From a virus: 64,000 nt of DNA. Every line of letters begins with the position of its first letter. Positions within the stretch are counted from its first letter, which is position 1. This document shows positions 1,702 to 59,139 of this stretch, one piece after another. The notes beneath the pieces were generated by a model. The model was not told the origin of the DNA. It searched no databases and was given only the letters and a program-made list of their open reading frames with translations. A program made the position numbers and the translations under genes. Where the stretch lies: positions 1 to 64,000 of IMG/VR virus record IMGVR_UViG_3300043548_000582. One strand, given 5' to 3'.

Positions 1702-1717
1702 TTCAATGGTTGTAACT

Positions 1718-2476: not shown

Positions 2477-2480
2477 AATA

Positions 2481-4500: not shown

Positions 4501-4565
4501 ATGAAATTCCATGTTTTAACTTCATTTAATAAAGCATTTGTATACATTGATAATATTCTATTATA

Positions 4566-9407: not shown

Positions 9408-9409
9408 GT

Positions 9410-33841: not shown

Positions 33842-34081
33842 ATGCAAAACGTAAATATAAAACTGAAAAACGGCAAAGTCGAAATCATGGATGCAGTTTC
33901 ATTCTCCAGATGGGTTTGTCTGGTCGAAGCTTTCGACATTATTTTTGAAAAAGCCGCTCAGCTCAATTTGGATATTGAGAGCTTTATAAAACCCGTCGCC
34001 ATCGAACACTACATCAACGAAAGATTCGATTCTGTTCTGTGTGATGTGAAGTATGAATTGGAGAATGGTTTATTGAACTGA
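33842..34081 (+). CDS. Hypothetical protein
   Basis: 79-aa ORF. Confidence 0.6.
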   Translation: MQNVNIKLKNGKVEIMDAVSFSRWVCLVEAFDIIFEKAAQLNLDIESFIKPVAIEHYINERFDSVLCDVKYELENGLLN

Positions 34082-34897
34082 TAACTCTCGCTCAATTCGT
34101 TCAATTGTCTCTTTACCAAGAGAAGGTTCGAAGTGTGCTTTTAGTTCAGTTGTATCCAAATCTAGTTCTTTGAATCCGATGAGATAATTTTTGAATCTTT
34201 GGTCTAGCTGATTTGGGTACGACACACCTTCTGGTCTATAAAATCGATGGCACCACCTTAAAAACGGCAGGCATAGTGTTCGCTTGCCGTTTTTTCTGTA
34301 TTTTTCGTGGATGTATCCTTCTTCACCACCAAATCCCCTGAACTTTGTATTGAATCCTAACCATGAATCTTTTCTACATGAAAATAATCCAAGACCCTGC
34401 GCGGGTATCTCAAAAGGAACTCCGTTAGGATCTTCGCCTCGCTCATCATTACCCCACACCCCCCACATATTTGACCTCCAAACGAGATCAAAATGGGTAG
34501 AAGTTCCTTTAAGATTGTCATAAACCAATGGTCCTTGTAATAAATTGCCGTCATCTTCATTGTTATCATAAAAGTCTATTAATTTTTTAAGAGATCCCGG
34601 TTCTAGAAGAACATGACTGTCTATACTTAGCACATAAGGTGTCTCAGCAAGATCAAAAATTTTATTTCTGACAATAGTCGATTTATAATTTGTGAAAGGA
34701 AAGTATTGCACTGGTTCATCAACCCAATCTAAAAATTCCCGTATGCATTTGGAATGTGTTCCAGATGGATTATTGTCAATCACGACAAATTCGACATTAT
34801 CCATCACTTCTTTGTGAAATAATCTGATTGATTGTATTGTGAAATACAAACCGTCCAGATCATCATGAACTGCCATCCCAATTGTAAGTTTCCTCAT
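34070..34897 (-). CDS. Glycosyltransferase family 2
   Basis: LTIGMAVHDD, VIDNNP, VLSIDSHV (the DxH also seen in polypeptide GalNAc-transferase-like enzymes), GLGLF, FRGFGGEEGY, W.HRF.R. Confidence 0.85.
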   Translation of the reverse strand: MRKLTIGMAVHDDLDGLYFTIQSIRLFHKEVMDNVEFVVIDNNPSGTHSKCIREFLDWVDEPVQYFPFTNYKSTIVRNKIFDLAETPYVLSIDSHVLLEPGSLKKLIDFYDNNEDDGNLLQGPLVYDNLKGTSTHFDLVWRSNMWGVWGNDERGEDPNGVPFEIPAQGLGLFSCRKDSWLGFNTKFRGFGGEEGYIHEKYRKNGKRTLCLPFLRWCHRFYRPEGVSYPNQLDQRFKNYLIGFKELDLDTTELKAHFEPSLGKETIERIERELSVQ

Positions 34898-34908
34898 ATT
34901 TTAATTTA

Positions 34909-35223
34909 TTAAAAATTGAGTTTTTTGCAAGTATTTTCAACACATTCAGATGTTGTCGATGTGTTTAATGGAATTATCGTGGTGGTTGTAGTTGTGGTAG
35001 TAGTTGCTGGGAGGGTTGTGTTTATAGTCGATGGATCTGTTAATGAAGGAGACGGGGGGATTCTTACTTTCATTATCGGAGGTAGTGGAAACGGTGATTT
35101 TGTTGTATTTTCGACCGGAGGAGGGAATATATACTTTATTTTAGGAGGACAGCACGGTATTTTTGGAGTTGCCGTTGTTGTCGAAGTAGTGGTCGGTTCT
35201 GGTGTTGTACCTGTCGTTTCCAT
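34909..35223 (-). CDS. Mucin-like Thr/Pro-rich small protein with Cys clusters
   Basis: Poly-Thr runs; shares TTK.P.PLP....V..PPS..LTDPS.I and C...C..KL.[FY] with its neighbour. Confidence 0.7.
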   Translation of the reverse strand: METTGTTPEPTTTSTTTATPKIPCCPPKIKYIFPPPVENTTKSPFPLPPIMKVRIPPSPSLTDPSTINTTLPATTTTTTTTTIIPLNTSTTSECVENTCKKLNF

Positions 35224-35225
35224 AA

Positions 35226-35699
35226 TTAATATCCTAATTTATTAACACATGGTTTGCAAATTATACTGACTGTTGTGGATGTTGATGTCGATGTTGTAGT
35301 TATCGGCTGTATCGTAGTTGGAGTGATAGTTGTAGTTGATATAATCGAAGATGGGTCCGTCAATGGATAGCTCGGAGGAACTTTGACGGTTATGGCTTCA
35401 GGAAGAGGCGTCGGGGTTTTCGTAGTTACTATTACCGGTTCAGGAGGATGCTCTATAATCAACTCAGGGCAACTTAAACATGGGTAGCATGTCGTAGATC
35501 CCGGAATTGGGGGTGGTGTCGTGGCTGTAGTTCCAGTGGTAGTACTTGTTGTTGTACTTGTGAGTGGGGGGGTAGTTGTAGTGGTAGTAGTTGTAGTGGT
35601 AGTAGTTGTGGTACTACCTGAAGGTGGCGGGGTAGTTGTAGACGAACCCTCTGGTGGAGGTGTAGTTTCGTCTGGTGGAGGTGTAGTTTCGTCTGGCAT
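35226..35699 (-). CDS. Mucin-like Thr/Pro-rich protein (paralogue of the neighbouring gene)
   Basis: PDETTPPP repeat, long Thr homopolymer, CYPCLSC, C-terminal CKPCVNKLGY. Confidence 0.7.
   Translation of the reverse strand: MPDETTPPPDETTPPPEGSSTTTPPPSGSTTTTTTTTTTTTTTPPLTSTTTSTTTGTTATTPPPIPGSTTCYPCLSCPELIIEHPPEPVIVTTKTPTPLPEAITVKVPPSYPLTDPSSIISTTTITPTTIQPITTTSTSTSTTVSIICKPCVNKLGY
35650..35696. repeat. 21-bp tandem repeat, about 2.2 copies (encodes DETTPPP)
   Basis: TCTGGTGGAGGTGTAGTTTCG twice plus TCTGG; 15-bp Thr-coding repeats lie nearby at about 35572-35612. Confidence 0.85.
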
Positions 35700-35701
35700 A
35701 C

Positions 35702-36466
35702 TTACATCCTGTTAAATTCGACTGTTTCTACAGTTGTTGCATTTTCGGTTCCTTGTGTGTGAAAATTTTTCAAAAACAAAACACTTGGAGCACTTAATGA
35801 CGAGATAGGAGATGAATATGAAAAACCGGGTCTAAATATGTCAGCGGAATCAGGATTGAAATTTATATTAATCGAAGTTAATTCTATGAATTCAGTTGAT
35901 CCGTCTGGTTTAAAATCTATAGTGATCTTATCAGTGTTTGTATATTTAAATCGCATGGTTTTGTACGACTTGCCACTTGATAATATCTTAAATTCTGGAT
36001 TTATATTTGAAAGTTCATTATAGTATGTAACATTATCATTAAAATCTCTTATAATTAAACTATTTCGTTTTATACTACCTAAACCAACACCGCTTCGAGT
36101 ATTTGATGATAAAGCAAACAATCCAGTGGTGTCAAATGCTATACAAATCCCTAGAATTGAATCACTTTCCCCATTACCTTCGAGTATTATGCGTTCATAA
36201 TTTTCAGTTAATATGTAATTTCCATCTTCATCTAGTAAAAAACCAGATAAGGGAACAGTTCCGCTATATCCCAAATAATGACCCGGAATTGAAGACAGAG
36301 ATGGTTTTGTTGATGTTAAGAAAGTTGCAAATGCAGCTTCATTACCAGATATAGCATACTGAAAACTCCAAATTATGTCATAATTTGGGTTGTAGTTCTT
36401 TTTTTCATCTACAAATGCTATATATTTTGCATTTGCTGGTAATTTAACATCAGATGGAAAGCTCAT
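35702..36466 (-). CDS. Virion protein, possible ConA/L-lectin-like beta-sandwich
   Basis: LGICIAFDT.G, RFKYTN..ITIDF, PGFSYS pattern; structural operon. Confidence 0.5.
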   Translation of the reverse strand: MSFPSDVKLPANAKYIAFVDEKKNYNPNYDIIWSFQYAISGNEAAFATFLTSTKPSLSSIPGHYLGYSGTVPLSGFLLDEDGNYILTENYERIILEGNGESDSILGICIAFDTTGLFALSSNTRSGVGLGSIKRNSLIIRDFNDNVTYYNELSNINPEFKILSSGKSYKTMRFKYTNTDKITIDFKPDGSTEFIELTSININFNPDSADIFRPGFSYSSPISSLSAPSVLFLKNFHTQGTENATTVETVEFNRM

Positions 36467-36467
36467 A

Positions 36468-38012
36468 TTATAAAGTATAACCGATTAGTCGCACGCTACC
36501 ATTCTCGTCAGAGTTTCCTATCGACACTCGAAGTGCAAAAGATGAAGAATTTCCGTTTGAACTCAGGGGAATCATGCATTGAGTGGTTGAAGTGGAACCT
36601 CCGTAAAATTTTGTGCTTGATTTATTTATCAAATATTCATTTACACCAACAACGTAGAGATTTGTTGGTGTATTTAAAAGTGATGTATTTAAAGCAGCAC
36701 ATATTATGCCTTGCTGACCATTATTCGTTAAATTCAACGTACTTTCCAGCAAGACCGTTTTCGCATTCGCTGGTAATGTTTGCGGCAATGCTAATATGGT
36801 AGGATAAACTGTAATAGTTGACGTTTCAGACATATTACTAGTTACAGTTTTTACAGTGATTGGAGTTTTCAAGAATTTCACATATCCTGAAGAATTTACT
36901 ATCTCTGTACCTGAAAGCGTGGTTACAACACCAGCTGATACAAATGGAACTGAGCTTACTCTTCCATAATCATCAACAATAAATGGAGTTTCCACAGTTG
37001 TTGATGGTATAATTGGCGGTAAACCAATTTGTATATTGCCACTCAACGTGCTGACAGGAGTTCCAGTTACAGTAACTCCATTCAATGTTCCAGATAGTGT
37101 ATTTCTAACAGTGAGGGTCGATGTTACTAAATTATCAGCGATAGCTTTGATAATGAAATTGGTCCCGACTGCACTCAAGGATACATTAGTTCCACTGTTC
37201 AAGCTAAACGTTGTCGAAGATGCTGGGTCTCCAGTTACCCCATACAATGTTTTATTTGTTAAATTAGGAACATTGAAGTTTCCACCAGAGCCTCCGTAAG
37301 TGGTGCCTATGGCGGCGGATAGATCTGGGTATACTGATCCTGAAACACTCTGACCATTGCATAGAAGCCATCCATAAGGAACAGTTCCTCCAGAAACAAA
37401 CGGTGTTATCATACCTACAGGTATTCTGGATGCAGAATTACTTACATAAAATGTATTAAGAGAAAGCGGAGTCGCCCAAGATAGATTTCCATAGATATCT
37501 GTTGATAAAAAGAAATCATTTTGTAATCCACCAGATGGCCATTTATAATTGACAGATTCTATCGATAGTTTGGACGGCAATGATAGATATTCAGAGTTAT
37601 ATGGTGAAATTCTGTTTGTTGAGATCCCACCACCGCTCAAGTTTAAAGTATTCGTGGATGCGTCGATGTCAATACTGTTACCTGCTGTGTAAACAGATCC
37701 TACAACTCTCCAATTATTGATATCTGTATATAAATTCCCATTGAATTTACATAAAGTTTTGTTCACAGTATTGAATACCAAGTCTCCTACCTGTGCATAT
37801 GAGAAAGTAATGGGATTACCTTCGCCCAAATATTTATTACCAGCGACTAGACCACCGAGAGTTGAGCCATCTCCGATAAACAATCTATCAATGTCGGTTG
37901 CATATCCAAGTTCACCGCTATCTAGAAGTATAAGTTTTCTGTCTGAATCCTGTCCTTGACGAACGATGAGTTTCAGAAGAGTATTTTGGAGGATTTCAAT
38001 TGAATTTGACAT
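36468..38012 (-). CDS. Tail fibre protein with Mtd-N-type module and tail-collar domain
   Basis: LIVRQG.....LDSGELGYATDIDRLFIGDG; IPVGMITPF....PYGWLLCNGQSVS...YPDL..AIGTTYGG....FNVPNL. Confidence 0.85.
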   Translation of the reverse strand: MSNSIEILQNTLLKLIVRQGQDSDRKLILLDSGELGYATDIDRLFIGDGSTLGGLVAGNKYLGEGNPITFSYAQVGDLVFNTVNKTLCKFNGNLYTDINNWRVVGSVYTAGNSIDIDASTNTLNLSGGGISTNRISPYNSEYLSLPSKLSIESVNYKWPSGGLQNDFFLSTDIYGNLSWATPLSLNTFYVSNSASRIPVGMITPFVSGGTVPYGWLLCNGQSVSGSVYPDLSAAIGTTYGGSGGNFNVPNLTNKTLYGVTGDPASSTTFSLNSGTNVSLSAVGTNFIIKAIADNLVTSTLTVRNTLSGTLNGVTVTGTPVSTLSGNIQIGLPPIIPSTTVETPFIVDDYGRVSSVPFVSAGVVTTLSGTEIVNSSGYVKFLKTPITVKTVTSNMSETSTITVYPTILALPQTLPANAKTVLLESTLNLTNNGQQGIICAALNTSLLNTPTNLYVVGVNEYLINKSSTKFYGGSTSTTQCMIPLSSNGNSSSFALRVSIGNSDENGSVRLIGYTL

Positions 38013-38023
38013 ATTTTATATAT

Positions 38024-39106
38024 TTAAAACTTGAATACTGGTATCGCATATGAACCAGTCCCATATGAGGTTTCTATAACTATAAATCCAGCGGATGATA
38101 ATAAGATATTATTACTAGTCAACCCGTTTGATGAGATTGCACTTATAAGGGTTTGATTTGTGTATGTTGTCTGTAAAGGATTCCCGTTGAATACAGATAA
38201 CATGGAAGTGTTTGTCTCATTTCCAGTAAACGATTGTGTTATAGTCGAAGACAGTGATGTAATTTGACCCTTTGAATTGTATGTGAAGTTGGAAAAACTA
38301 GCATTTCCTCCACTACCCAATATGTCTTTCAATGAAATTACATTGGAGTTATTTTGAATAGTTGCGCCATCAACACTTGCGATGATGGAGACTAACTTCC
38401 CAGCACTTAAACTTAATCCATTTCCAATAGCGTCAGGGCCGATGGAACTCAAACCAACAGAACCCAAAGGCACGCTCGTCAAGGACAGAACACCACTATT
38501 GAACGAGAAACCAGATCCCACATTTAATCTTATGGTATTGCCGCTTCCACCTGTCAATCCGTCGCCAAATGAGCTTGATGCTATGTGGTTTTGATTGATT
38601 TGAAGGACGGATAATTGATTTGTTGTGGAAATCGTGAGGGTAACTCTATCTACATTGGCAGATAATCCATTGGAAGCGGTTGCAACCAACCCACCTTGGT
38701 TATAGGCAGCGCTTTGATCAAAATTAGCGCCACTTATCGCGTTATTTTTGATGCTTAATTGTCTCGATGTGTTATAGTATAGACTTGTGTTATCAGGATT
38801 GGTTCCAATAAATACCCAAGAAGACAATTGACTATAATCCGATCCAGATAATTGATACAAGAACCCGTTTTCATTTACAATATCCCCTCGAACTGCATTT
38901 TGGAGAGTGTTTCTTGTATTTGAAACAGTCAAAGGATCGTGATTTAAGTTGCCAGCAACCACACCTCCAGATAGAATACCATTCCCTATGAATAAACGTT
39001 TAGTATCAACTGTAAATCCAAGCTCTCCTTGCTCAAGTATGATTCTCTGACGTTGTGAATCCGTTCCTCTTCTTACTTTAAGTTTGATTATTGAAATATC
39101 TGCCAT
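38024..39106 (-). CDS. Fibre-like virion protein with Mtd-N-type module
   Basis: KLKVRRGTD...LEQGELGFTVDTKRLFIGNG; G.GL repeats. Confidence 0.75.
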   Translation of the reverse strand: MADISIIKLKVRRGTDSQRQRIILEQGELGFTVDTKRLFIGNGILSGGVVAGNLNHDPLTVSNTRNTLQNAVRGDIVNENGFLYQLSGSDYSQLSSWVFIGTNPDNTSLYYNTSRQLSIKNNAISGANFDQSAAYNQGGLVATASNGLSANVDRVTLTISTTNQLSVLQINQNHIASSSFGDGLTGGSGNTIRLNVGSGFSFNSGVLSLTSVPLGSVGLSSIGPDAIGNGLSLSAGKLVSIIASVDGATIQNNSNVISLKDILGSGGNASFSNFTYNSKGQITSLSSTITQSFTGNETNTSMLSVFNGNPLQTTYTNQTLISAISSNGLTSNNILLSSAGFIVIETSYGTGSYAIPVFKF

Positions 39107-39108
39107 AA

Positions 39109-39792
39109 TTATGAAATTCTATTCCAAACATACACACCGTATGATGGATTTGTTAGTGTTATAGGGGTTATTTGTGAAGCTCCAACCACTCCAGAAGTTC
39201 TTCCAACAGAAGGTACCACTGCGTTTCCCTCTAATCTATAAGAAACTGGGTTGGTTTGTAACCTTCCACCTCTCGCTAAGTAATTTGTAGAAATCAAAGA
39301 ATCTTTATCTGCGGAAAAGTCTTCAATTTCGTTTGCTATGAAGTGAAAGTGATCCGGTATATTAGAAGAAGATAATGTTTGTTGATAAAAACCCCCAGTA
39401 TTAGCACCTACGGTCACAGTTTTGGAAACACCCCCAGCATCAGTTCCGGTGCCGACTCCTGTTATCACCATTCCCTGTGATACTTGAACCCACGACGTTC
39501 CTATAAAGCGGGTAGCGGGGTTTGTGGAATCCAATGTTAATAAGCACGACCCTACTGGATAAATGTAATCAATTAATTTGATTAGATTTGGCTGAGATGG
39601 GAAAATTATGTTTCCTGCGCTCAAGGAACCCGTTACGACAGCCCCATTGTTCTCCATACCCAGAGAAAGAGATGATTTGTTGCCTAAACCGTCATAAACA
39701 TCGGTTATATTTGCAGATGAAAGCGATTCTGCTTCCACATGCAACAAAGATCCGTATAAATCAGATATGAACTGATCGGTGAGTGATTTCAT
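39109..39792 (-). CDS. Baseplate/short-fibre protein with gp10 C-terminal-like domain
   Basis: IYPVGS.....NPA....TSW.....G...GVG; HFH; PSYGVYVWNRI. Confidence 0.75.
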   Translation of the reverse strand: MKSLTDQFISDLYGSLLHVEAESLSSANITDVYDGLGNKSSLSLGMENNGAVVTGSLSAGNIIFPSQPNLIKLIDYIYPVGSCLLTLDSTNPATRFIGTSWVQVSQGMVITGVGTGTDAGGVSKTVTVGANTGGFYQQTLSSSNIPDHFHFIANEIEDFSADKDSLISTNYLARGGRLQTNPVSYRLEGNAVVPSVGRTSGVVGASQITPITLTNPSYGVYVWNRIS

Positions 39793-39821
39793 TAGTTATA
39801 TTTATGCTTAAAAATTGCTTT

Positions 39822-41531
39822 TCAAGATAAATCCACTAGTTTCTTTTGCAGATCATTTATCAATGTGAATATTCGCTGCAAAGATACAACATTTACATTC
39901 TCGTTACCGTTTAATATCAAGTTAGTCAACTCATAAGTTAATTCAGGCGTTGGAATTACAGATAATGTTGGATTTGCCAAATCTCCAGTGCTTGATTTCA
40001 CCTTTTCAACGATGGTTGCGATGTTGATGGTATCAATTAGGAGATTTGTGATGATTGAATTGAAAGAAATACCAACGCTGCTCGTATTACATTTTATCCC
40101 CGTGAATGCTTTTGATACATTTAATGGCACATAGGTTTCATACAACGAAGATCTGGTTTTAGATATGTATATACGCCCGATGTTATGCATTATGTAATAC
40201 AGATATCCATTTTTTTGGATTGTATTGTACGTCAAGTTGTTGTAACTGTTTGACAACATCTTGTTTGAATTGAACTTTATTTGGATATCGTTTATGTTTT
40301 CTTCGGTTTTGTTTATGATATAATCATTTAAATAGAAGAAATTTGAAGATCTAGCTTTAGCCAATCTGTTATTTATGTTTAAAAGCGGGCGAATTTCGGT
40401 TTCCGCTCTAGGTTGATCCGATTGTTCTATCTGGGTGATGGTCTTTTTCAGATAAAAGAAGTCAGAGTCCTCTGTTGAAAACTCAATTCCTGTAGCTTCG
40501 TCGGCATATAACAATTCTTCACGACGAAATGTGTTTGTGTAATCATCGCTATCGAAAAATATGAAATAATAGAGTCCATTCTTCTGACCGACTGCTATTA
40601 CATTGTCGTCTTCTTTTCTTATGTCAATTGCTATGAGATTATCTAGATCCAAATCACTCAATGATAGTTGTAATAGGATTTCATTTGAATATTTGTTTTT
40701 CAAATACAGAACATTCCCACTGTATTCTGTTCGCTTGTTGAATCCTATCGTATATAATCCTATATTTTCAGAGTTGGCCGAAATTGAAATGCTATCTTTT
40801 AAAAATAGATTGCTACAATCTTCGTATTTTGATAAATTATATATTAAAAGTTCAGAATTTGTATAAAAATACAATTCATCAGAATCATAATCCTGTTCAA
40901 TTTTTAAATTTACTGAGTTTTCAGCCTGACTGACTATTGTTAATTTCTTAGATGGATCGTTGAAAGTCCCGCTTAGAGCGTATGTGATATTATCAGACAC
41001 ACAATAGTATATGAAATTGTCATTGGCGTCTATTATGAAAGAACCAGACTCCACTCTATCCAAGAATGCCCATTCTTTAGAATAACTAAATGGATCGCTG
41101 TGTGTATACACGTTTTTCCCATACATTTCATCATCCGGTGTTCTAGAATCAGCCTCTGTTGAAGTTAATGTATAAAAGTAGGTGTTTTTGTAGTCGTAAG
41201 GAACATTGTTTGGATTTATGAAAATTGAATTTTTATAAATTTTCAAATTATTCTCATCAATGCGTCCGAATAACTCATTCAAGGTGTTGTCGTTTAGTAT
41301 ATCCAACGCATTTGGAACTGCTAAATCGATAGTTGGTGTGATTCCATCGAAAACAGCATAATTTAAATACAAATCACTTAAAAAGTTTGATTTTGGAGTC
41401 AATTCTCTGGATTCATAGCTTGGTTTTTTACCAGAATATGCAACGCCGCTCAACACATGGAAATAGCCACTGTAAGGAGCTGAATCCAGTGTGAATGCAT
41501 TGCCATCATCATATTTGAAATAAGAAATCAT
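39822..41531 (-). CDS. Hypothetical structural protein
   Basis: 569 aa in the late structural operon; YSGYFHV..G.AYSGK N-terminus. Confidence 0.6.
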   Translation of the reverse strand: MISYFKYDDGNAFTLDSAPYSGYFHVLSGVAYSGKKPSYESRELTPKSNFLSDLYLNYAVFDGITPTIDLAVPNALDILNDNTLNELFGRIDENNLKIYKNSIFINPNNVPYDYKNTYFYTLTSTEADSRTPDDEMYGKNVYTHSDPFSYSKEWAFLDRVESGSFIIDANDNFIYYCVSDNITYALSGTFNDPSKKLTIVSQAENSVNLKIEQDYDSDELYFYTNSELLIYNLSKYEDCSNLFLKDSISISANSENIGLYTIGFNKRTEYSGNVLYLKNKYSNEILLQLSLSDLDLDNLIAIDIRKEDDNVIAVGQKNGLYYFIFFDSDDYTNTFRREELLYADEATGIEFSTEDSDFFYLKKTITQIEQSDQPRAETEIRPLLNINNRLAKARSSNFFYLNDYIINKTEENINDIQIKFNSNKMLSNSYNNLTYNTIQKNGYLYYIMHNIGRIYISKTRSSLYETYVPLNVSKAFTGIKCNTSSVGISFNSIITNLLIDTINIATIVEKVKSSTGDLANPTLSVIPTPELTYELTNLILNGNENVNVVSLQRIFTLINDLQKKLVDLS

Positions 41532-43741
41532 ATGTAATTTGTGAATTTTATGTTATTTATAATTGAAGTTGCTGGAATGTTTTGTTGGATCTTGTCCAAC
41601 ATGACGTTTTTCAGATATTCCAGAGTATCAGAGTTACTGATTCCTAAATTATCAATCGATACATTGATATAATTACTCTTATTTGAATTCCCATTGCAAA
41701 TTGTCTGGATATGTTTGATATCATCGAGAGAATTTCTCATTCCACATGGTAGAGTGATAACAATATCATCAACCGCTTGCCTGTTTTGTATAAATGGAAT
41801 TATAAATGCTAAATTCTCATCAATTTTTTGATCTGCTATTATTATATCGGTTGTTATACCATTCGGCTCTAAAAGATCTTGATCGTTGTAATAAAATTTA
41901 CCATATATGATCGATTTGTTGGAAAATTGAGCGATTTCAGTTGATATATCCAACACTTTGGCGTTATTTAAAAAGAAGAATCCTTTTCCAGTCAGGGCAT
42001 CATAACTGAAACAAACGAAATTATCTTTGTACTTCTTATAAAGTGTCGTTGCGTCGAATATCAAGGTTTGATTATTTGAATTATTGAATAATTTCAATTC
42101 AAATGTTATATCATCCGCTGTTTTTGTAATTTTTACCCCAGCATCTATATTATTTCGAAGACTTTGGATAGTCCACTCTGGATCAGATCCATTAAAGTAA
42201 AACGATAGCGTTATCTTGCCAGCATCATTGATCAAATTTTGATAATTTAATGGGATTTGATTTGCTCCACCACAATCGACAGTGTTTGTTGCTGTAATAA
42301 TATCGAATAATTCATTGTTATTGAATCTGTGGTATTCGTATTTTCTATTAGGTTGAAAGCTCAGATCACTACGCTTGTCAAAAATCACATATTTCGAAAC
42401 ATTTGAACTCAATGTTGCGTTTGTTGTGATTAAATTTTCAATTGCCTGATCATATGTGATATCAAACACGCCTTTTTCAGACAATGCATTCTTCTTGGAT
42501 ATCAAATCCGGGTAGAAGTATCGATCAACCCATGTTTTAGTTTCACCTACACCTGATAACCATGTGCATAGATAAACCTTTCCATCTTCTGAATAGTTGT
42601 TTGTGTCTATTTGATAGATTTTATCAGCATATTGTGGAGTGTCGTATCCATATGATCCACAATCCACGAATCTGGTGTCATTTATATTCAGATTGCTGAA
42701 TGGATACATACTTGAAGGAGCCTGAAATTCAGTGATACCTCGTCTTATTAAATAAGGTTTGTTGTAAAATACGTAATTTAAAGAAAGTTCAGATGAATTT
42801 TCAGAATCAATTGTGTTTGTTATATTTGTATAATTTCTGAAATCATCAACCGCTATGTCATATCCAGATGATAGAAGATTCTGACCGTTTGTGAATACAT
42901 CACTTACAGTTAGTTGATTTTTTAAAACGATAATGTCTTTATATTCAGATGAGTATGGAGAATGAATTAAAAAGTTGTTGCTTAAATCAAACTCACTTTT
43001 AGAAGAATCGATTATATTCGAAGCATTCTGATATGTCACGAATGATGTGTTTGGAGATACTTCAAGTTTATATTCTTTAGGTCTAGCGACTTTGAAATTG
43101 CTTGTTAGGATTGTATTTTTGTTTTCATCATTCAATTCAATCAATACAAGCCCATCGCCTTCTTTCTTTACCAGTTTATTACTGGAAAGAGCCTTTATAA
43201 GAAATAGTTCTTTCTTGTCGTTGTATATGTATTTGAAAAATTGAGGATTTTGCTCATCCTCTTCATCGGGAAGTAGAACATCCCATTTAAATAACAGATC
43301 GCCACTATCTTCACTTAGTAGATAAGTTTTTCCAGATTCTATAAATGATATTGTGCATAAATTATTTTGATAAAAGTCCAAATCAAAATATGTTCGTTCG
43401 CTTAATTCATCATCGAATGTTATGGAATAAGTATTTGCATTTGCAATCGGTGTTGATCTTGACAAATAAACAGATCCAGATTGCAAATAAGTCAGAAGTT
43501 TTTCTGATTTTAAAGTATTTGTGTTGAATTTTAAAAAAGTATCTGCTCTTGTATTATTCGTCAGATAAAAGTTTGAATATTCTTTGGTTTTGAAATCATT
43601 AAAACCGGAAAGCGCCAAAGGGAAATTGAAAGAAAATCCGTTTTGATATGTTCGTCTTACTTGTTTATAAGAAGTATTATCCATCGTTGACTTCCATGAT
43701 TTAGAAGTCAACGATGATAGAGATTTTATGATCGTTTCCAT
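41528..43741 (-). CDS. Hypothetical structural protein, possible LamG-like C-terminal domain
   Basis: 737 aa; FVCFSYDALTGKGFFFLN; late promoter. Confidence 0.6.
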   Translation of the reverse strand: METIIKSLSSLTSKSWKSTMDNTSYKQVRRTYQNGFSFNFPLALSGFNDFKTKEYSNFYLTNNTRADTFLKFNTNTLKSEKLLTYLQSGSVYLSRSTPIANANTYSITFDDELSERTYFDLDFYQNNLCTISFIESGKTYLLSEDSGDLLFKWDVLLPDEEDEQNPQFFKYIYNDKKELFLIKALSSNKLVKKEGDGLVLIELNDENKNTILTSNFKVARPKEYKLEVSPNTSFVTYQNASNIIDSSKSEFDLSNNFLIHSPYSSEYKDIIVLKNQLTVSDVFTNGQNLLSSGYDIAVDDFRNYTNITNTIDSENSSELSLNYVFYNKPYLIRRGITEFQAPSSMYPFSNLNINDTRFVDCGSYGYDTPQYADKIYQIDTNNYSEDGKVYLCTWLSGVGETKTWVDRYFYPDLISKKNALSEKGVFDITYDQAIENLITTNATLSSNVSKYVIFDKRSDLSFQPNRKYEYHRFNNNELFDIITATNTVDCGGANQIPLNYQNLINDAGKITLSFYFNGSDPEWTIQSLRNNIDAGVKITKTADDITFELKLFNNSNNQTLIFDATTLYKKYKDNFVCFSYDALTGKGFFFLNNAKVLDISTEIAQFSNKSIIYGKFYYNDQDLLEPNGITTDIIIADQKIDENLAFIIPFIQNRQAVDDIVITLPCGMRNSLDDIKHIQTICNGNSNKSNYINVSIDNLGISNSDTLEYLKNVMLDKIQQNIPATSIINNIKFTNYI

Positions 43742-43749
43742 TTAAATAT

Positions 43750-44391
43750 TTAAGGCGGTAGCGTAGTTGTTGTCGTAACCGGACCCGGTGTGGTTGTTGA
43801 TGTTGGACCCGGTGTGGTTGTTGGGGACGGTGTGGTTGTGGATGCTGGTATCGGGGGTGTTGGTGGTGGGGTTGTCGTATTTAAGCTTTCAGCTTCTACT
43901 AAGAACCCTCCTTTATCCACAGAAAATATAAACTGTTTGTTGTTATCAGATACTTGCATAATATTTGCATATATATGCTTCATATCCCCGATACTTTCAA
44001 AATAATCGGATGTTATTATTTTGAAAGGTTGCACTATTGAACATTTGTCACCATTTATATATTCTATATTGACTTCGGCAGATAATAATTTATATCTGGA
44101 TGTTTCTGATGGATAATAGAGGTGGGATACTTCATTTGAAAGTATTGAACTTATTTTATTATAAAGTATTTCTGGAATTATACTGTCAACTCTGTAGTCT
44201 TTACTGAATGAATTTTCAAAAATAGCAGACTCTCCATCACCCCAATTGATTCTTAGATACATGGGAATTTCAGACTCTGATATCCCACTCAATACAAAGG
44301 TCACAGAAGTCAAATCATACAGTTTGACTTCTGGTAATGTTGAAGATAGTGCGGTTGCTGAACTAGCAAATCCAATTGTGTAAGTATTCAT
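43750..44391 (-). CDS. PKD-like virion protein with a mucin-like C-terminal tail
   Basis: INWGDG...SHLY; tail TTTPPPTPPIPASTTTPSPTTTPGPTSTTTPGPVTTTTTLPP. Confidence 0.65.
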   Translation of the reverse strand: MNTYTIGFASSATALSSTLPEVKLYDLTSVTFVLSGISESEIPMYLRINWGDGESAIFENSFSKDYRVDSIIPEILYNKISSILSNEVSHLYYPSETSRYKLLSAEVNIEYINGDKCSIVQPFKIITSDYFESIGDMKHIYANIMQVSDNNKQFIFSVDKGGFLVEAESLNTTTPPPTPPIPASTTTPSPTTTPGPTSTTTPGPVTTTTTLPP

Positions 44392-47096
44392 AGAGTTAAT
44401 TCTTCGTTTATCAATGATACTGGTCCTGATGATAGATAAACATTCAGTATAGTGCTATAATTAGTTGTGAATAGGTTTGAGTAACTCTCAAACGATCCAA
44501 AATACACATCGTGTTTCAAGAATGACACATTCGGATTAATGATGAAATCATATTCATTCAATGCGATCATTTCATTTTGATCTTTTATCAAAAACGAGAT
44601 GTTGTATATATTATTGGTGCTATTATACACCAGAACTGGTTTATCTACAATATCAAACCGAACATTGCCACCAGAAACACTGAAAAATTGAGTGTTTGAA
44701 GTGTAATCTGTGTCATTTATTGGGAATATTTTCAAGTTTTTACTTGTCAACGTATCATACTTATAAATCTCTGGATATATGATGTAATTATTTGTTGAGA
44801 TTGTCGGAGTTGTACTGTTGAGAACACAATAATATACATCGGTTCCCACTTTAAATCTATTCGACAGTTGATTTACATCATTTGTTGAGTGTTCGATCAC
44901 ATAAGCTGTCGTATTTGGATTTACGAAACTTGAATTTTCATATTTTATCTTTTCGAAAATGAGATAATTGTCGGTTTCGATGGATAGTGTATCATATGCA
45001 ATCTCAAATTTATTAACGCTTGATAATTGAGCGAATACAGCGGAATTGTACTTGGAACTGAGATAAGAAAATTCACTCAGAAGAGCTGATACTCTATTGG
45101 TAGAGCCGTTTCTCACAAAAATCTTACCATTCAAGTCAATTCTGTCGTTGTAAGTGTTTCTATCAAAAGAATCCACTTCAAATGAGGTAGCATTATCGGT
45201 TTGATTGATATATGTGTAATTTACTTTATCAAATTGATAATCATAGACAAATTCTGTTGTAAATTTACCTCCATCCACATTCAAGACTGAATTTCCAGAA
45301 AGTGGTCGTAGTGTTTGTGTAAAATCGGCTGTTAATGTTGGATAAGCGGCATCTAAAAGAGCGCGTTGGAGCGGTGATTTCGTATTTAACGCAGCTTCAA
45401 ACAGAGTATTGTAGTAATACACTCCAGAACCCGGAAAACTGTTTAAATCGGAGTTTATAGGATCACTTAGAAACTCCGTATCATTTTTCATGAAGAGTCC
45501 GCCATCTCTTATTTTAAATGAAGGTTTTAAATTGGACTCCGTTGGCGCTTTTAATTCTTGATAAGGTGAGAAAAACCTGAAGAAGAGGGTCCAAGCACCT
45601 GAAGTTGAAGAAAATGAATTGGTGTATGATGATAACCCAGATCTTATTGTTTCGGTATATGATGTATCATCATATGTGAAATAATTAAAAGCATATTCTT
45701 CACCATATAAATCATCGTAGAACTGATAACCATTTAATATCAGACTTTTGATGTATGATGGTGTCCTTACTTGGATGTTTGATTTGAAATTGTCGTCTAT
45801 TTTAAATAGACCAAACTTATTTCCATACACATCTCCTTTTTGATCTGCAATATATCCAGATTCGAATATTGATTCGAATGATTGATCAAACGAATCGGAT
45901 TTCTCAGCAACATATCCGTAGTATTTTGTATCTGATTTATTAGATATCGCTTGATTGACAGCGTTTCCAGATGATGTGTTTCGTTTTAGATATTCACCAT
46001 CTACGAAAAATGTCAAAACCTCATCATTACTTCCAAATATGTTTGGATCAGGGAAAAAGTATAACGAATTTGGTTGTAAATTGGCGGTATTTATTAAAAA
46101 CGATTCGTTTTTACCATCTACAAAGACAATACTTGTTTTACTTGGCTTGAAGAACCCCAAGTCTTCTTTAGTTATTAAAGATCCTTTGTGTGTGGATGCT
46201 GTCGTCGGGTAGTTTCGGTTTAATACATTGCCGCTTTTAGCAGAAGCTTTGAAAAGCTGACCTGATACAAAATCGGTTGATGTCGAACCAGTTGAAATGT
46301 AATAAAAATCACTACTGACGCTCTTTTCAGTTAGTTTTCTTTTATTATCAAAGAGCTGATCAACTTCTTTCAGAGCTTTAATTTCATCCGATACACCTAC
46401 AAATACTTCAGAAATCAATTCTTCATTTGATTTAAGGAAAATGTTTTGATTATAATCCAAGTCCTTGTAATCATATACATATTGATCAGGGGTTTGATCG
46501 AAATATGTGCCATATACATTGTATAGCTCTTCAATATCAATTTTCAGCTTTGTTTTTATCGCTTCGATATCATATTCTATTGGTCCAAGCTCTTGATTTT
46601 CTAAGAATTCGAGGGTTTTTTCAAAAATTACCTTTTCAACTCCAAGTACGCTACCCTTTAGCTTTTTTCTAGTTATTTCGTATTTTACATCACTTCTTTT
46701 AGAATTGTAATATTTGCAAATATCTACAAGTTTTCTACTGTAAAACCCTAAAACTGTATCAAGATCGTACTCATCATTGAAATCAATCTTGGAAATGAAT
46801 TCTTTTTCTTCCAGAGTTGTATATTTCAGATTTATATCCTTTATAAACTCTCTGTATTTCTCAACTATCAGGTTGTTTTCCGTGGAATTTGAGTTTTTCT
46901 TTTTGGTATTCCAACGCTTCAAGTATTCATTGTAATACGTTTGTAATACATCGGGTTCAAAGCTTATCGAAACGGTTTTGATAAACAATAAAAACGACAT
47001 TGGAGTACTAACATCCAATGCATTAATTTCTAAAACGTTTGGGTTTGTTATACTCTTTGGTACTTCGGGATACCCGTACTGTAGCGTCGATGACAT
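44388..47096 (-). CDS. Large hypothetical structural (baseplate-associated) protein
   Basis: 902 aa; late promoter; adjacent to the gp6 block. Confidence 0.6.
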   Translation of the reverse strand: MSSTLQYGYPEVPKSITNPNVLEINALDVSTPMSFLLFIKTVSISFEPDVLQTYYNEYLKRWNTKKKNSNSTENNLIVEKYREFIKDINLKYTTLEEKEFISKIDFNDEYDLDTVLGFYSRKLVDICKYYNSKRSDVKYEITRKKLKGSVLGVEKVIFEKTLEFLENQELGPIEYDIEAIKTKLKIDIEELYNVYGTYFDQTPDQYVYDYKDLDYNQNIFLKSNEELISEVFVGVSDEIKALKEVDQLFDNKRKLTEKSVSSDFYYISTGSTSTDFVSGQLFKASAKSGNVLNRNYPTTASTHKGSLITKEDLGFFKPSKTSIVFVDGKNESFLINTANLQPNSLYFFPDPNIFGSNDEVLTFFVDGEYLKRNTSSGNAVNQAISNKSDTKYYGYVAEKSDSFDQSFESIFESGYIADQKGDVYGNKFGLFKIDDNFKSNIQVRTPSYIKSLILNGYQFYDDLYGEEYAFNYFTYDDTSYTETIRSGLSSYTNSFSSTSGAWTLFFRFFSPYQELKAPTESNLKPSFKIRDGGLFMKNDTEFLSDPINSDLNSFPGSGVYYYNTLFEAALNTKSPLQRALLDAAYPTLTADFTQTLRPLSGNSVLNVDGGKFTTEFVYDYQFDKVNYTYINQTDNATSFEVDSFDRNTYNDRIDLNGKIFVRNGSTNRVSALLSEFSYLSSKYNSAVFAQLSSVNKFEIAYDTLSIETDNYLIFEKIKYENSSFVNPNTTAYVIEHSTNDVNQLSNRFKVGTDVYYCVLNSTTPTISTNNYIIYPEIYKYDTLTSKNLKIFPINDTDYTSNTQFFSVSGGNVRFDIVDKPVLVYNSTNNIYNISFLIKDQNEMIALNEYDFIINPNVSFLKHDVYFGSFESYSNLFTTNYSTILNVYLSSGPVSLINEELTL

Positions 47097-47129
47097 TGAT
47101 AATATTTACTTGTCAGATGCCGACTTTGA

Positions 47130-49256
47130 TCATATTGACAAAGATTGATAAAGAGAATCCAAGAACATATTATTAAACACGCCATCCGAAGCAAATAAAT
47201 AAGAATTATCAACTGTCGGACCAAGTATTGTTGTTTTTGAATTTTCGAAATTTATGATGTTATCAGTCACGGTGCCATCATAACCATCAACATATTCAAA
47301 AAACACATAATATTTTTCGAAATCTTGTGGGCTGAATGATGATGGCAGAACGAGCGGCCAACCCCAGTCTGATGTATATTGAGACAAGTTGTATGTTTGT
47401 CCTGATCCAGCACACAGCGGTTGATATGTATTCAGCAATGTGTAAGAATTGCTGAATTTCTCCAGAGCAACGATTGGAGTTCCAGCGGTTATGGTATAAG
47501 TCAGTGTATCTATCTGATCACCAATGTTCGTTCCATATTTGTCTTTTTGAGTGTATCCTCTGGTATCGAAATTTTGATTGAATTTATTCGTTGTTCCGAT
47601 TAGTTTGTTTAGACTGACAGATGCCAGATTCGCAATTCGATCTATGTCTTCAGGATAATTCGTGGATGCTCTGTTGAATACAAGCTCTTCATTATCAACA
47701 AGCCTCATATCTGAAATAAGAGCCTGAATGTTTTTAGTGTCGATATCTGTATTGTTTGCTATGAAGTTTGCTATCTTTTCATAAGTCTTGACACCTATTG
47801 AATTGTGATCATAGTTATCAGATCCAAATATACTTCCTAAGAAATCATTAAACAGTATAGGATTGTTTTTGATTTTTTCTTGGAAAGCTAAATCGGTGAA
47901 CGTTTGAGCAGCATTGAAATCCTCATTGACTTTGTATATGTCGTAATAATTATGTGAGTATATATCAAAGTAACTTGAACTTGCACTCAGTGTGAATGCT
48001 GATAGATTATCATTTGTGAGCGTTGCGACACAAGATAACTGTACTGCTGTTGTTATCGAGCTAAGATATGGGAATTGGATATATCCTCTGAAAGATCCAC
48101 CGTGATCCAGTTGATCTATAGTATAGTTTAAAGAAGATATTGTATAATACGTTGATGGTATCAATGCTGTATTCGCTACAAGTCTCTCGTTGGCTTGGGT
48201 TAATATATAGAATCCGTTATTATCGATTAGATAATCTCCAGATAATACACTTATAGAAAGAGCCGATAATTGAATATTATTGAAGTTTTTGAGAGAATAT
48301 TGAGCTGAATCTTTAACCTTTACAACAAATGGTATCTTGCTATTGATAAATTTTGTATGATATATATCGAATGAGCTTATGGGGGTGCTTTCCCCATCGA
48401 TACCATTGGATGTTATGCTGAGTCTGAACGCATCATTGTTGGGGGTTATATTTGCACTCAGCAAGACTCCCAGATTGTTTAGGTAATCGGTTGTTTTTTC
48501 TGCAACTATTGTGTTTGTATTGCTAAACTTGAATAATATCGATGTATTACCAACCGTATCATCTTTGTAATACACGTATTTCGTAGCTGAAGTTCCAACA
48601 AAGAATGAACCAGCATCTGTTTTAGAGCATGGAACTATTGATCCGTTGTCAATCTTGGCGTACAATGCATCTCCTGATGTTATTTTGATATCTGGAACCT
48701 CGTAATATTGCACATTTTGTATTGCAATATTTGATGTGGAATCAAATATGGAATATGTTGGACGTAAATGTACGAATTTATCAGATTGAATTTCGAAGAA
48801 GTTCGTACTTCCCGAATTATTCACTGAATATACAACATTCGTTATGGGCTGATACCACGGATATGTGACATTCAAGGTCCAAGGACCGTGAATAACACTC
48901 TGTGTCAATTCCAAGTAGCCTTTATTGGATGATAGATTGGTAAATTCGAGAGTGTATGGTATGTAATCTTTAACTTCTACGTTTTGAGAATAAGACGATA
49001 TCAATGCATTGTTTTGGCAGTCGAATACCAATAGATTTACTGTGTAAACCCCCGGAAAATTGTAATATTTGATTGCTGTGAGCGCTTTTGATGTTGTACC
49101 ATCACCAAAAGACCAAACAACATCTTTGTTTGGAAACAAATCCAAATCAGGTATGAACTTGAATGGTGTTGACGATAAGCTATAAGAACTCAATACATTC
49201 TCATTCTTGAAATCGTATACATCAAAAGTCGTATATGTTGTTTTTAAATCAGGCAT
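47130..49256 (-). CDS. PKD-domain baseplate-associated protein
   Basis: VWSFGDGTTS....YNFPGVYTVNL. Confidence 0.7.
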   Translation of the reverse strand: MPDLKTTYTTFDVYDFKNENVLSSYSLSSTPFKFIPDLDLFPNKDVVWSFGDGTTSKALTAIKYYNFPGVYTVNLLVFDCQNNALISSYSQNVEVKDYIPYTLEFTNLSSNKGYLELTQSVIHGPWTLNVTYPWYQPITNVVYSVNNSGSTNFFEIQSDKFVHLRPTYSIFDSTSNIAIQNVQYYEVPDIKITSGDALYAKIDNGSIVPCSKTDAGSFFVGTSATKYVYYKDDTVGNTSILFKFSNTNTIVAEKTTDYLNNLGVLLSANITPNNDAFRLSITSNGIDGESTPISSFDIYHTKFINSKIPFVVKVKDSAQYSLKNFNNIQLSALSISVLSGDYLIDNNGFYILTQANERLVANTALIPSTYYTISSLNYTIDQLDHGGSFRGYIQFPYLSSITTAVQLSCVATLTNDNLSAFTLSASSSYFDIYSHNYYDIYKVNEDFNAAQTFTDLAFQEKIKNNPILFNDFLGSIFGSDNYDHNSIGVKTYEKIANFIANNTDIDTKNIQALISDMRLVDNEELVFNRASTNYPEDIDRIANLASVSLNKLIGTTNKFNQNFDTRGYTQKDKYGTNIGDQIDTLTYTITAGTPIVALEKFSNSYTLLNTYQPLCAGSGQTYNLSQYTSDWGWPLVLPSSFSPQDFEKYYVFFEYVDGYDGTVTDNIINFENSKTTILGPTVDNSYLFASDGVFNNMFLDSLYQSLSI

Positions 49257-51063
49257 CGATTACTTCTATTTTATTTATTAGCGATTGAGGAGAATAGAAA
49301 TATGGGAATTTATAAAACGGAAGCGTTGTCGTTTGATTTACGATATCATTGTCACTATCGACATATATCGGATTCCATGATAAGAAAGATACTCCGTTGA
49401 AGAATGTATTTTCCTTTGTATTTTCCGTTCTTATTGAAGATACACCCTCAATTCCCAATATCGATGCTGTCAAGTCTGTTAAGTTTAATGTCTGCCCCAA
49501 TACGTTATTGGATGGCTTGAAAAAATTCAAGATTGTATCATTTATCTTGGATTTCAACACCCCTTTGTTGATTTTATTCGTTTTACTTCTAACAACAACG
49601 AGTTTTGATTCATCAACAACACTTCGAAGTGAATTTATTGTACTGAATCCAATATCAAATGCCACGTAGATAGGATCTCTAGGTACAATTTCATTGGATA
49701 TCATCTTTTTGTCTCTGGTGATGTCAATTATGAGATTTTTAAATGATTCACTGAGATAATTCGGATATGTACCATCTTGCGTTACTTCAAATTTCGGCAC
49801 ACAGAATATGTTGACGTTGTTGAAATCACAACTATCTGCAAAGTTGACCTGATTTATTAAAACACGGTTGACTTTATTCGGATCTACACATATGCGGTAG
49901 TAATAGTCGATGTATTCGTTTATAAATCTGTCATTATCAACAACCTTGACAGTATTCAAGATGTTTGGTATGCTCTTGCTCAAGAATTTCTCATAGTCGG
50001 CTTCAGTTACAAGTCTGTTTTGTGCAGCGATCAGGAACGGTGCATTGTTTTTGATAGACTCAACAGTTTCAGCTTCACTTATGGTTGTTGAATTCAGAGG
50101 ATTGTTGAATGTCAATGAAGGACTCAGAACAGTTGTTATGATTTGAGAGTTTGAAGATGTTGTATCCTCATAGATTTCGCTGAATGTATTTGAAGCGTAT
50201 GTAAAGAGCTTATTTCCATTGATTGCGTTTTTGCTTATGATACCTTTATCACCATCGCTCAAGATATACATTATCTTAACCTCATCACCGGATTCCAGTC
50301 GTTTTCCGAATGTGTTGTTTCCGAATTTTACTTCGTAATGTCCATTTTCATTCAATCTAAGCTCATATGCTCTCTCGGTTGCATTTGAAAGATACAAGCT
50401 GTCGCTTTCTTTGTATTCATACCAAGTATCGGTATTCACTTCCTTGACATACACGCTTATTGTACCATCTGCTATGAATCTACTGTCATTTGTGTTGACC
50501 AAGTTATCAACAACAATCGGAAGAGTTTCAAAATCCAGACCTTCTGATGTATAAGTCGGATATTCTTGAACTGTACCTTGATATAAGATCAGATTGTTGT
50601 TGATCGAATCTATAGTTTCATTCGATGTTGTGGTTTTTTCAAAAAGTGTATCTTCCAAAACGGTGTATTGGATATTATCCACTAGAAAGTAGCTGTACTT
50701 TCTAATCATATAGCTACCAACAGCCAGATTGGATGATGCGGTGCAGTTGATTGGAACAATTGATGTTTGTCTGCCTGTAGGCTTGTATCCTATCAGTTTA
50801 ACAATACGATTCATGTTCTCATAAATCGAAGCCTGATCAAAAAGCGATTCTGAGCTATTTTGATTCAAATAAAACATCAATACATGTGTGTAATATGCCA
50901 ATATCTCGATGAGAAACGACATGTTACTACCTTCATAATTTTGATCTGTGAATGTTGAGTTCTCATTCAGTCTCTGGATTATGAAATTCTTTAAAGAAAC
51001 AGCATCGAAATTGATGTATGCGTTTTGTGGAAGATTATATTCCAATGTATCTTTATCGCTCAT
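49249..51063 (-). CDS. gp6: Baseplate wedge protein gp6
   Basis: FTDQNYEGSN, LAYYTH, KLIGYKP, YEVKFGN..FGKRL, ETVESIKNNAP, QNRLVTEADYE. Confidence 0.9.
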   Translation of the reverse strand: MSDKDTLEYNLPQNAYINFDAVSLKNFIIQRLNENSTFTDQNYEGSNMSFLIEILAYYTHVLMFYLNQNSSESLFDQASIYENMNRIVKLIGYKPTGRQTSIVPINCTASSNLAVGSYMIRKYSYFLVDNIQYTVLEDTLFEKTTTSNETIDSINNNLILYQGTVQEYPTYTSEGLDFETLPIVVDNLVNTNDSRFIADGTISVYVKEVNTDTWYEYKESDSLYLSNATERAYELRLNENGHYEVKFGNNTFGKRLESGDEVKIMYILSDGDKGIISKNAINGNKLFTYASNTFSEIYEDTTSSNSQIITTVLSPSLTFNNPLNSTTISEAETVESIKNNAPFLIAAQNRLVTEADYEKFLSKSIPNILNTVKVVDNDRFINEYIDYYYRICVDPNKVNRVLINQVNFADSCDFNNVNIFCVPKFEVTQDGTYPNYLSESFKNLIIDITRDKKMISNEIVPRDPIYVAFDIGFSTINSLRSVVDESKLVVVRSKTNKINKGVLKSKINDTILNFFKPSNNVLGQTLNLTDLTASILGIEGVSSIRTENTKENTFFNGVSFLSWNPIYVDSDNDIVNQTTTLPFYKFPYFYSPQSLINKIEVIDA

Positions 51064-59099: not shown

Positions 59100-59139
59100 A
59101 ATTTGCAGTATTTACTTTGAGGGGTCACTAAATATAGTC

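Follow-up and report, generated by a model that had tools for sequence, protein, structure and literature searches.

A Leu-Ser-small tripeptide in excess on the tail-periphery and neck proteins of a marine T4-like phage clade: a candidate modification or recognition site

The window analysed here is the whole stretch of 64,000 nucleotides (nt) at positions 1 to 64,000 of IMG/VR virus record IMGVR_UViG_3300043548_000582, an 89 kb contig (G000), ~43% complete, whose genes indicate that it comes from a very divergent, uncultured, marine T4-like phage. Its DNA polymerase is ~30% identical to the cyanomyophage counterparts, and its gp6 reaches identities of only 24-28% with the best-matching cultured phages. 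Directly downstream of its gp25-like and gp6 baseplate-wedge genes, at 35702-49256, lie nine minus-strand open reading frames (ORFs), some with tail-collar or tail-fibre domains and the rest without a family match, and it is the excess in their products of one ordered tripeptide, L-S-[A/G/S] (hereafter LS[AGS]), that concerns us. The nine ORFs are given below, with lengths in amino acids (aa) and with LS[AGS] counts as observed against, or over, the number expected from each protein's own composition; the orthologs are those of two near-complete relatives assembled for comparison, G004 (197 kb, 93% complete) and G005 (202 kb with terminal repeats).

47130..49256 (-), 708-aa protein encoded directly downstream of gp6, with tandem Ig-like/PKD domains in residues 1-433 and a C-terminal alpha/beta domain; 9 LS[AGS] against 1.2
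44388..47096 (-), 902-aa baseplate-periphery protein without a family match; 5 against 1.4 (orthologs 1/1.2 in G004 and 5/1.6 in G005)
43750..44391 (-), 213-aa protein; 3 against 0.4
41528..43741 (-), 737-aa protein; 6 against 1.0 (orthologs 3/1.1 and 6/1.4)
39822..41531 (-), 569-aa protein; 2 against 1.0, not enriched when taken alone
39109..39792 (-), 227-aa tail or tail-fibre protein (PHROG tail-protein matches); 3 against 0.7
38024..39106 (-), 360-aa fibre-module protein; 8 against 1.7 (orthologs of 33-35% identity, 8/1.6 and 12/1.5)
36468..38012 (-), 514-aa protein with a tail-collar or tail-fibre domain; 7 against 1.9 (orthologs 7/1.6 and 8/1.2)
35702..36466 (-), 254-aa protein, the last enriched ORF of the fibre module; 5 against 0.6 (orthologs 2/0.6 and 5/0.9)

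The preliminary description of this DNA had counted by eye about 48 LS[AGS] in about 4,480 aa, with 9, 8 and 7 in the ORFs that start at 47130, 38024 and 36468, and had ascribed the excess only in part to Ser/Gly content. A recount returns the same three individual figures and a total of 48 in 4,484 aa, where per-protein composition predicts 9.95 (5, 7, 8, 3, 2, 6, 3, 5 and 9, in order from the ORF at 35702 to that at 47130). The excess also survives the composition-preserving shuffles that the description had proposed: pooled residue shuffles yield a mean of 10.0 (sd 3.06, max 23 in 3000; z=12.4), and shuffles that preserve dipeptides yield 23.9 ± 3.7 (max 38; z=6.5). When all 8,000 tripeptides are ranked blindly in the nine ORFs, LSS (23/5.2) comes first, LSG (14/3.0) second and LSA (11/1.8) third; the motif was therefore not cherry-picked, and ranking and shuffles together imply that Ser/Gly content explains just a small part of the excess.

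What these proteins hold is an ordered, position-specific and hydroxyl-centred motif that stands above chance in the putative substrate set. At the first position of xS[AGS] in the nine ORFs Leu alone is enriched (Ile 10/8.5, Val 8/6.4), at the second position of Lx[AGS] Ser alone is enriched (Thr 13/7.8), and after LS the residues Ala, Gly and Ser are raised and Thr, Pro and Tyr lowered, Pro being excluded at +1 of the motif Ser. Among 120 homologs of the 708-aa protein, which served for counts, LS[AGS] is enriched 6.0x, IS[AGS] and VS[AGS] ~2x and LT[AGS] 1.3x. The reversed motif [AGS]SL, which has an identical composition, occurs at expectation (323/319), so that local compositional heterogeneity is excluded. 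A motif at the level of DNA is likewise ruled out: the sites use all six Leu codons (TTA/TTG/CTN) and encode Ser through both TCN and AGY, and the signal must therefore be selected at the protein level. Nor does the tripeptide belong to a longer repeat or a periodic rung, since nearest-neighbour spacing does not differ from random (P=0.45). Preferences at the flanks mostly stay within ~2-fold, with Y/V/I favoured at position -2, and there is neither an extended context nor clustering; the regular spacing and extended context typical of pentapeptide repeats, beta-helix rungs and collagen-like families were not found. Two established sequons served as controls on a set of 270 enriched ORFs, and neither is enriched there, the Bacteroidota sequon D-(S/T)-(A/I/L/V/M/T) occurring 676 times against 677 expected and N-x-(S/T) 2440 times against 2550.

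Across the whole contig outside the nine ORFs, enrichment is confined to two further proteins, in which the five and four occurrences claimed by the preliminary description are upheld by the recount; they are listed here with gp6, which serves as the internal negative control and as the upstream limit of the enriched block.

59068..60429 (+), 453-aa Ser/Gly-rich protein, family unassigned; 5 LS[AGS] against 1.6 (best matches 8/1.8 in G004, aligned over 98 aa only, and 10/1.7 in G005)
63295..64095 (-), running past the window end at 64000, gp14-like neck protein with a weak PHROG match to head closure Hc2; 4 against 0.27 (G004 ortholog 4/0.5)
49249..51063 (-), gp6 baseplate wedge; 0 against 0.7 (orthologs 0/0.7 and 1/0.7)

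Besides gp6, the gp25-like protein, the capsid-region ORFs, the replication proteins (0-1 occurrences each, in line with the scarcity reported earlier) and the glycosyltransferases themselves are all at background level. Some half of the enriched ORFs are without a family match, and those that can be named are all proteins of the tail, neck or collar. The enriched proteins are Ser-rich (9-15%), some also Gly-rich, and the motif occurs in them in unrelated folds, as had been remarked earlier, and in varied secondary-structure contexts. The non-virion proteins of G000 show a shortfall (5 against ~11.9). An avoidance there of a promiscuous enzyme is not claimed, since the replication orthologs of G004 and G005 are near expectation.

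The excess is carried by the clade at large. Relatives number in the hundreds in IMG/VR and other metagenome collections, Tara Oceans sequences included; in INPHARED, neither the fibre genes nor the neighbouring glycosyltransferase gene at 34070-34897 has a DNA or protein match, and no close cultured relative was found. Nine ORFs are significantly enriched in G004 (62/11.6) and nine in G005 (66/9.3), the set comprising the orthologs of the enriched window ORFs together with gp13-like and gp15-like neck/collar proteins, and the sheath-like protein is mildly raised in G000, G004 and G005 (3-4 against 1.1), its sites all within residues 119-418. Orthologs of only 33-47% identity retain the excess (site counts 8/8/12, 9/12/10 and 7/7/8), and the 120 homologs of the 708-aa protein hold 980 LS[AGS] against 163 expected, the ratio staying at 4-7x down to 33% identity; some branches of this family have low counts, of 2-5 sites. 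The individual sites meanwhile turn over. In a column alignment of 64 homologs the 534 instances are spread over 88 columns, 3 of them occupied in >50% of sequences and 65 in <10%, and parsimony on the family tree requires at least 272 gains or losses of motif sites. Between sequences of 33-50% identity, site retention is 0.37 against a control of 0.23, which means that single sites are just slightly conserved and that it is the number of sites which is held, at about six times the expected level. At columns where a relative is without the motif, position 1 is usually hydrophobic (L/I/V/F ~55%), position 2 polar and position 3 polar or small; the mostly polar character of the last two suggests that the motif lies on the protein surface.

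The proteins of other phages show no such excess, whether in gp8-12 plus wac of T4 (0/3.1), in the baseplate and fibres of pelagiphage HTVC008M (17/12.9) or in cyanophage ACG-2014f (4/8.9), and these counts rule out a generic property of fibre proteins. On the evidence of these sequences the LS[AGS] excess is a clade trait under selection, not a set of inherited sites.

The 708-aa protein allows the motif to be placed on a structure. In its AlphaFold2 (AF2) model (predicted local distance difference test, pLDDT, 84.3) residues 1-433 form a string of Ig-like/PKD domains, homologs of which carry PKD Pfam tags and for which Foldseek gives S-layer proteins, phage Hoc and adhesins as best matches. 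Motif columns are twice as dense in this Ig-like part (55 in 433 aa) as in the C-terminal part (18 in 275 aa). The motif Leu falls in a predicted loop in 28 cases, in a strand in 23 and in a helix in 4, a distribution over loops and strands that is near background; the motif is not explained by any single turn or strand geometry. Contrary to the expectation, voiced in the preliminary description, that the sites would map to surface loops of such a model, about half of them lie in predicted strands.

The fibre operon closes with the following genes.

34070..34897 (-), 275-aa GT-A glycosyltransferase (GT) at the end of the fibre operon, a candidate motif reader (Pfam GT2, PF00535; AF2 pLDDT 93)
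34909..35699 (-), two Thr/Pro-rich mini-proteins of 104 aa (30 T, 19 P) and 157 aa (53 T, 31 P), without LS[AGS]

The GT2 enzyme belongs to a family seen at 277 IMG/VR loci (56-82% identity) and abuts enriched ORFs in ~80 loci, an adjacency to fibre ORFs that holds despite rearrangements of order and strand. Its invariant blocks are D93-x-H95, GFGGEEGYIHEK and WxHRFxRP; the first of these, which reads DSH or DCH in 25 homologs without any change of D93 or H95, falls on the DxD position of TarP. GFGGEEGYIHEK and W-x-H217 may, by the numbering of GalNAc-T2, correspond to the WGGEN-like motif and the third, His metal ligand of GT27. With the GT2 model as query, the top 50 Foldseek matches are all GT27 polypeptide N-acetylgalactosamine (GalNAc) transferases (E 3e-13, TMq 0.73), and VIA-align, which is independent of Foldseek, ranks the GalNAc-Ts three to four Z units over generic GT2 enzymes (GalNAc-T1 Z 22.8 over 257/275 residues, TgGalNAc-T3 Z 22.0, next family 19.1). 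As judged from the model, the catalytic fold is closest to that of the polypeptide GalNAc-transferases. By sequence no membership of GT27 is detected, and fold alone links the two: Pfam returns only PF00535, phmmer against the PDB is empty, and a profile search of the PDB yields TarP at E=0.0015 and no GalNAc-T.

The mini-proteins upstream of this gene are Cys-capped, and the GT2 gene begins 11 nt downstream of them; in most of 69 related loci a Thr/Pro-rich ORF with essentially no LS[AGS] lies 11-14 nt upstream of GT2. Enzyme gene and Thr/Pro-rich ORF look like an enzyme-substrate pair apart from the LS[AGS] signal. At the loci L082, L088, L090 and L119 the same slot holds huge ORFs (1,125-2,058 aa; T+P 18-21%), almost without LS[AGS] and in one case with 47 Cys; the fibre ORFs beside them differ from these and are motif-bearing. 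At a further GT2-bearing locus, L064 (IMG/VR 3300034093_005458), the large neighbour ORFs, of 1043, 1091 and 778 aa, have 2/1.8, 3/0.8 and 0/0.4, and it could be a motif-poor branch.

Genes for glycan synthesis also occur elsewhere in the window, in two groups.

874..6037 (-), glycan-synthesis cluster identified through Pfam and PHROG: GT6-like, GT11, an unassigned ORF, a methyltransferase, GT10, GT7C/GT2 and a GT2-like gene (5225-6037)
57280..58921 (-), RmlA-type nucleotidyltransferase (PF00483, 1e-46) and RmlD-like reductase (PF04321, 4e-15), which would supply nucleotide sugars

The GT6-like, GT11 and GT10 genes belong to fucosyltransferase and histo-blood-group-type families. Every complete relative has many glycosyltransferase and sugar-nucleotide genes, and the cassette itself varies, G004 having a GT15-like gene and G005 eight GT2 hits, seven of them at ~84-90 kb, a variation that by analogy resembles the diversity of O-antigen loci. 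The gene at 5225-6037 is the sole GT common to all complete clade genomes (orthologs in G004, G005, G011, G001 and G003) in a comparison that has no motif-negative member, and this distribution makes it a second candidate reader. It encodes a viral GT-A enzyme, whose neighbours include Glyco_transf_7C/7N-type structural clusters and of which lambdoid phages and mycobacteriophages have distant homologs. The gene overlaps a thymidylate-kinase-like/AAA_28 gene (the pair at 5225-6761, minus strand), and the kinase-like gene is present in G004 and G005 as well; the two may together form a module for DNA hypermodification, or else the GT may be the conserved protein glycosyltransferase.

Other neighbours of the cluster may be mentioned here. 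The HNH endonuclease gene at 6781-7446 (-), between the GT cluster and phoH, has an ortholog in neither G004 nor G005, which suggests a mobile insertion; a SegE-like GIY-YIG endonuclease is encoded at 11249-11704 (-), and a small ORF at 8961-9428 (-) with a match to 'putative ATP-dependent zinc protease' (PF05618, 2.8e-8) is kept in both relatives at 56-63% identity.

As to the time of expression, a TAAATA box stands 11-12 nt upstream of the start in 26 of 104 G000 ORFs (~2 expected), nearly all of them virion genes, for example at the starts in the window positions 36468, 41528, 44388, 49249, 51078 and 63295. It looks like the late promoter of the clade, with leaders that would be very short or absent. 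The late promoter of T4, TATAAATA, is not over-represented in G000 (8 against 8.3 expected) and within the GT cluster the methyltransferase alone has a TAAATA box, so that the evidence on the timing of the glycosyltransferases is weak.

Taken together, the data are best fitted by a linear motif that is read in trans on exposed virion surfaces, and the class of explanation that they support best is that of a modification or recognition site. The preliminary description had argued that a short motif shared between unrelated folds suggests a modification site; in favour of this the motif is ordered, Ser-centred, clade-specific and maintained in density. Within this class O-glycosylation of the Ser by a phage enzyme is the leading mechanism, although we hold it to be somewhat less than probable. 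Under such a mechanism selection would maintain LS[AGS] at high density, as a short linear recognition motif, on proteins of the tail periphery and the neck, and its Ser would be the acceptor for a phage-encoded cytoplasmic O-glycosyltransferase (either the GT2 at 34070-34897 or the clade-core GT at 5225-6037 being a candidate); other glycosyltransferases of the variable cassettes would then lengthen the sugar, and the outcome would be a glycan coat on the baseplate rim, the fibres, the neck and the outer sheath. We infer here the modified Ser, the sugar as its modification and the identity of the enzyme that reads it. The fullest form of this proposal is that LS[AGS] constitutes a novel sequon for O-glycosylation of Ser, that a phage GT reads it in the host cytoplasm and that selection has put it on every outward-facing tail or neck protein, with interchangeable cassettes (GT6/10/11 here, GT15 in G004) building strain-specific coats; as a whole this remains tentative, and we consider it doubtful.

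Several observations weigh against glycosylation by these enzymes. The idea of an O-glycosylation sequon, already put forward in the preliminary description, gains from a genome rich in glycosyltransferases and from a GalNAc-T-like GT2 in the fibre operon, but the adjoining Thr/Pro-rich proteins would be a more natural substrate of that enzyme than the LS[AGS] proteins, and GalNAc-Ts usually prefer Thr, whereas LS[AGS] strongly prefers Ser. The GT2 gene is, moreover, absent from G004, a genome 93% complete (hidden Markov model search with --max in six frames, best E=0.11), which still has its nine enriched ORFs. The gp6-neighbour protein of G004 has motif sites private to G004 and two partial contigs, on which GT2 was not found either, and these sites suggest that the three form a group; G004 has no Thr/Pro-rich mini-protein at the GT2 position, and a 283-aa ORF that occupies this position was rejected as a divergent GT2 (hhalign probability 0.1). 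The second candidate might serve DNA modification instead, because it adjoins the thymidylate-kinase-like gene. With regard to the motif itself, about half of the sites are in predicted beta-strands rather than loops, the exposure of the motif Ser is deduced from sequence, and part of the signal may be structural, because the family of the 708-aa protein shows a ~2x excess of IS[AGS] and VS[AGS] too.

This last point leads to the main rival, which we regard as unlikely: a structural or folding preference that needs no reader, whereby a slot at a strand edge or turn (a buried hydrophobic residue, an exposed polar one and a small one) would be filled as Leu-Ser-small in the beta-rich surface domains of this clade. 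The residues aligned with the motif in relatives that lack it have just this pattern, the preference for Y/V/I at position -2 is what alternating strand faces predict, and both the accompanying excess of IS[AGS] and VS[AGS] and the persistence of the motif in G004 without the GalNAc-T-like GT would follow naturally. Against it, the sites share no secondary-structure context, and such a preference would need to operate in unrelated folds of this clade while leaving the counterpart proteins of baseplate and fibres in T4, HTVC008M and the cyanophage without an excess and the buried virion proteins of the same genome at background. It also fits poorly with the choice of Leu (6x) over Ile and Val (~2x), which are the better strand formers, and with the lack of enrichment of the reversed motif. 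An artefact of chance or composition, arising from the content of Ser, Gly and Leu, from Ser-rich tracts or from internal domain duplications, is effectively refuted by the shuffles and the reversed motif: although the enriched proteins are Ser-rich, some Gly-rich, and the dipeptides LS and SG are themselves enriched, z remains at 6.5 when dipeptides are preserved (12.4 for residue shuffles), the reversed motif is at expectation with the same composition, the contexts of 57 sites are unrelated to one another, and the excess recurs in orthologs 33-47% identical at other positions.

Two further alternatives keep a function for the motif in trans, and we give both little credence. A docking site for a non-enzymatic partner, such as a clade-specific chaperone of assembly, a protein that decorates or cements exposed tail surfaces, or a ligand from the environment or the host, would account for the behaviour of a short linear motif, with density kept as sites turn over on tail-periphery and neck proteins, and for the fact that no reader enzyme has been pinned down; yet three residues without flanking context offer little binding energy or specificity, half of the sites are inside strands of folded Ig-like domains, and no candidate partner gene was identified. 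A comparably low probability attaches to a modification of the Ser other than glycosylation (phosphorylation, acylation, ADP-ribosylation or phosphoglycosylation), to which the preference for Ser over Thr (6.0x against 1.3x), unusual for GalNAc-T-type enzymes, and the survival of the motif after the loss of the GalNAc-T-like GT in G004 both lend some colour. Among the conserved window ORFs that were tested, however, none was recognised as a kinase, acyltransferase or ADP-ribosyltransferase, and glycosyltransferases and sugar-nucleotide genes are plentiful in every complete relative.

For O-glycosylation of the LS[AGS] Ser there are partial precedents. The polypeptide GalNAc-transferases of GT27 (mouse GalNAc-T1, 8v9q; human GalNAc-T2, 6nqt/2ffu; Toxoplasma GalNAc-T3, 8uhv) resemble the phage GT2 in fold by two aligners and in the invariant D-x-H at the DxD position, and the phage gene adjoins Thr/Pro-rich, mucin-like proteins. 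They differ in that the phage enzyme shows no ricin-type lectin domain, no membrane anchor or type II topology (the catalytic model spans all 275 aa) and no detectable sequence-level membership, and also in the choice of acceptor: GalNAc-Ts follow no strict sequon and act by preference on Thr close to Pro, whereas the present motif is specific for Ser, with Pro excluded at +1. The Bacteroidota D-(S/T)-(A/I/L/V/M/T) and the N-x-(S/T) sequons are alike in concept, each being a stretch of three residues in which a hydroxyl or amide group is the acceptor and a neighbour is constrained; apart from not being enriched here, they act in the periplasm or the endoplasmic reticulum, which cytoplasmically assembled virions do not reach.

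Closer in setting are the mycobacteriophages, whose capsid and tail-tube subunits have reportedly been shown by experiment to be glycosylated, and for which we know of no short sequon. There, as by hypothesis here, a tailed phage with GT genes of its own glycosylates the proteins of its virion in the cytoplasm of the host, and the GT at 5225-6037 has distant homologs in these phages that are annotated as glycosyltransferases; the targets differ, being capsid and tail tube there and, as predicted here, tail periphery and neck, and the signal here is an ordered tripeptide known from sequence alone. That phage-encoded virion glycosylation exists in mycobacteriophages is stated by papers that cite the original study (PMC12582341 and PMC10568470, citing Freeman et al. 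2023, Cell Host Microbe 31:1216). In the cytoplasmic O-glycosylation of flagellins a Leu or Ile beside the modified Ser matters, and the glycosites have small or apolar residues around them (PMC9290775, PMC11339370). Bacterial flagellins, modified by Maf and GT2-type enzymes, share with the case proposed here a surface-filament protein glycosylated in the cytoplasm on exposed Ser/Thr, and differ in having no known fixed consensus and only one or two substrates, as against a sharp tripeptide over a dozen unrelated virion proteins. By analogy the flagellin and mycobacteriophage systems would be the nearest precedents, neither with a defined tripeptide. Literature searches returned no paper on an L-S-small sequon, nor any on virion glycosylation in T4-like marine phages.

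Tail fibres and baseplates set the host range, and they are the parts of the virion most exposed to proteases, to grazers and to sticking on the wrong surface. If the proposal is true, a tripeptide-directed glycan coat would explain the large and variable GT cassettes of marine T4-like phages, would add a new and easily scored sequon to bacterial and viral glycobiology, and would provide a cytoplasmic three-residue tag for glyco-engineering. Even without glycosylation, a compartment-specific tripeptide that is selected through fast site turnover over hundreds of genomes requires some trans-acting reader.

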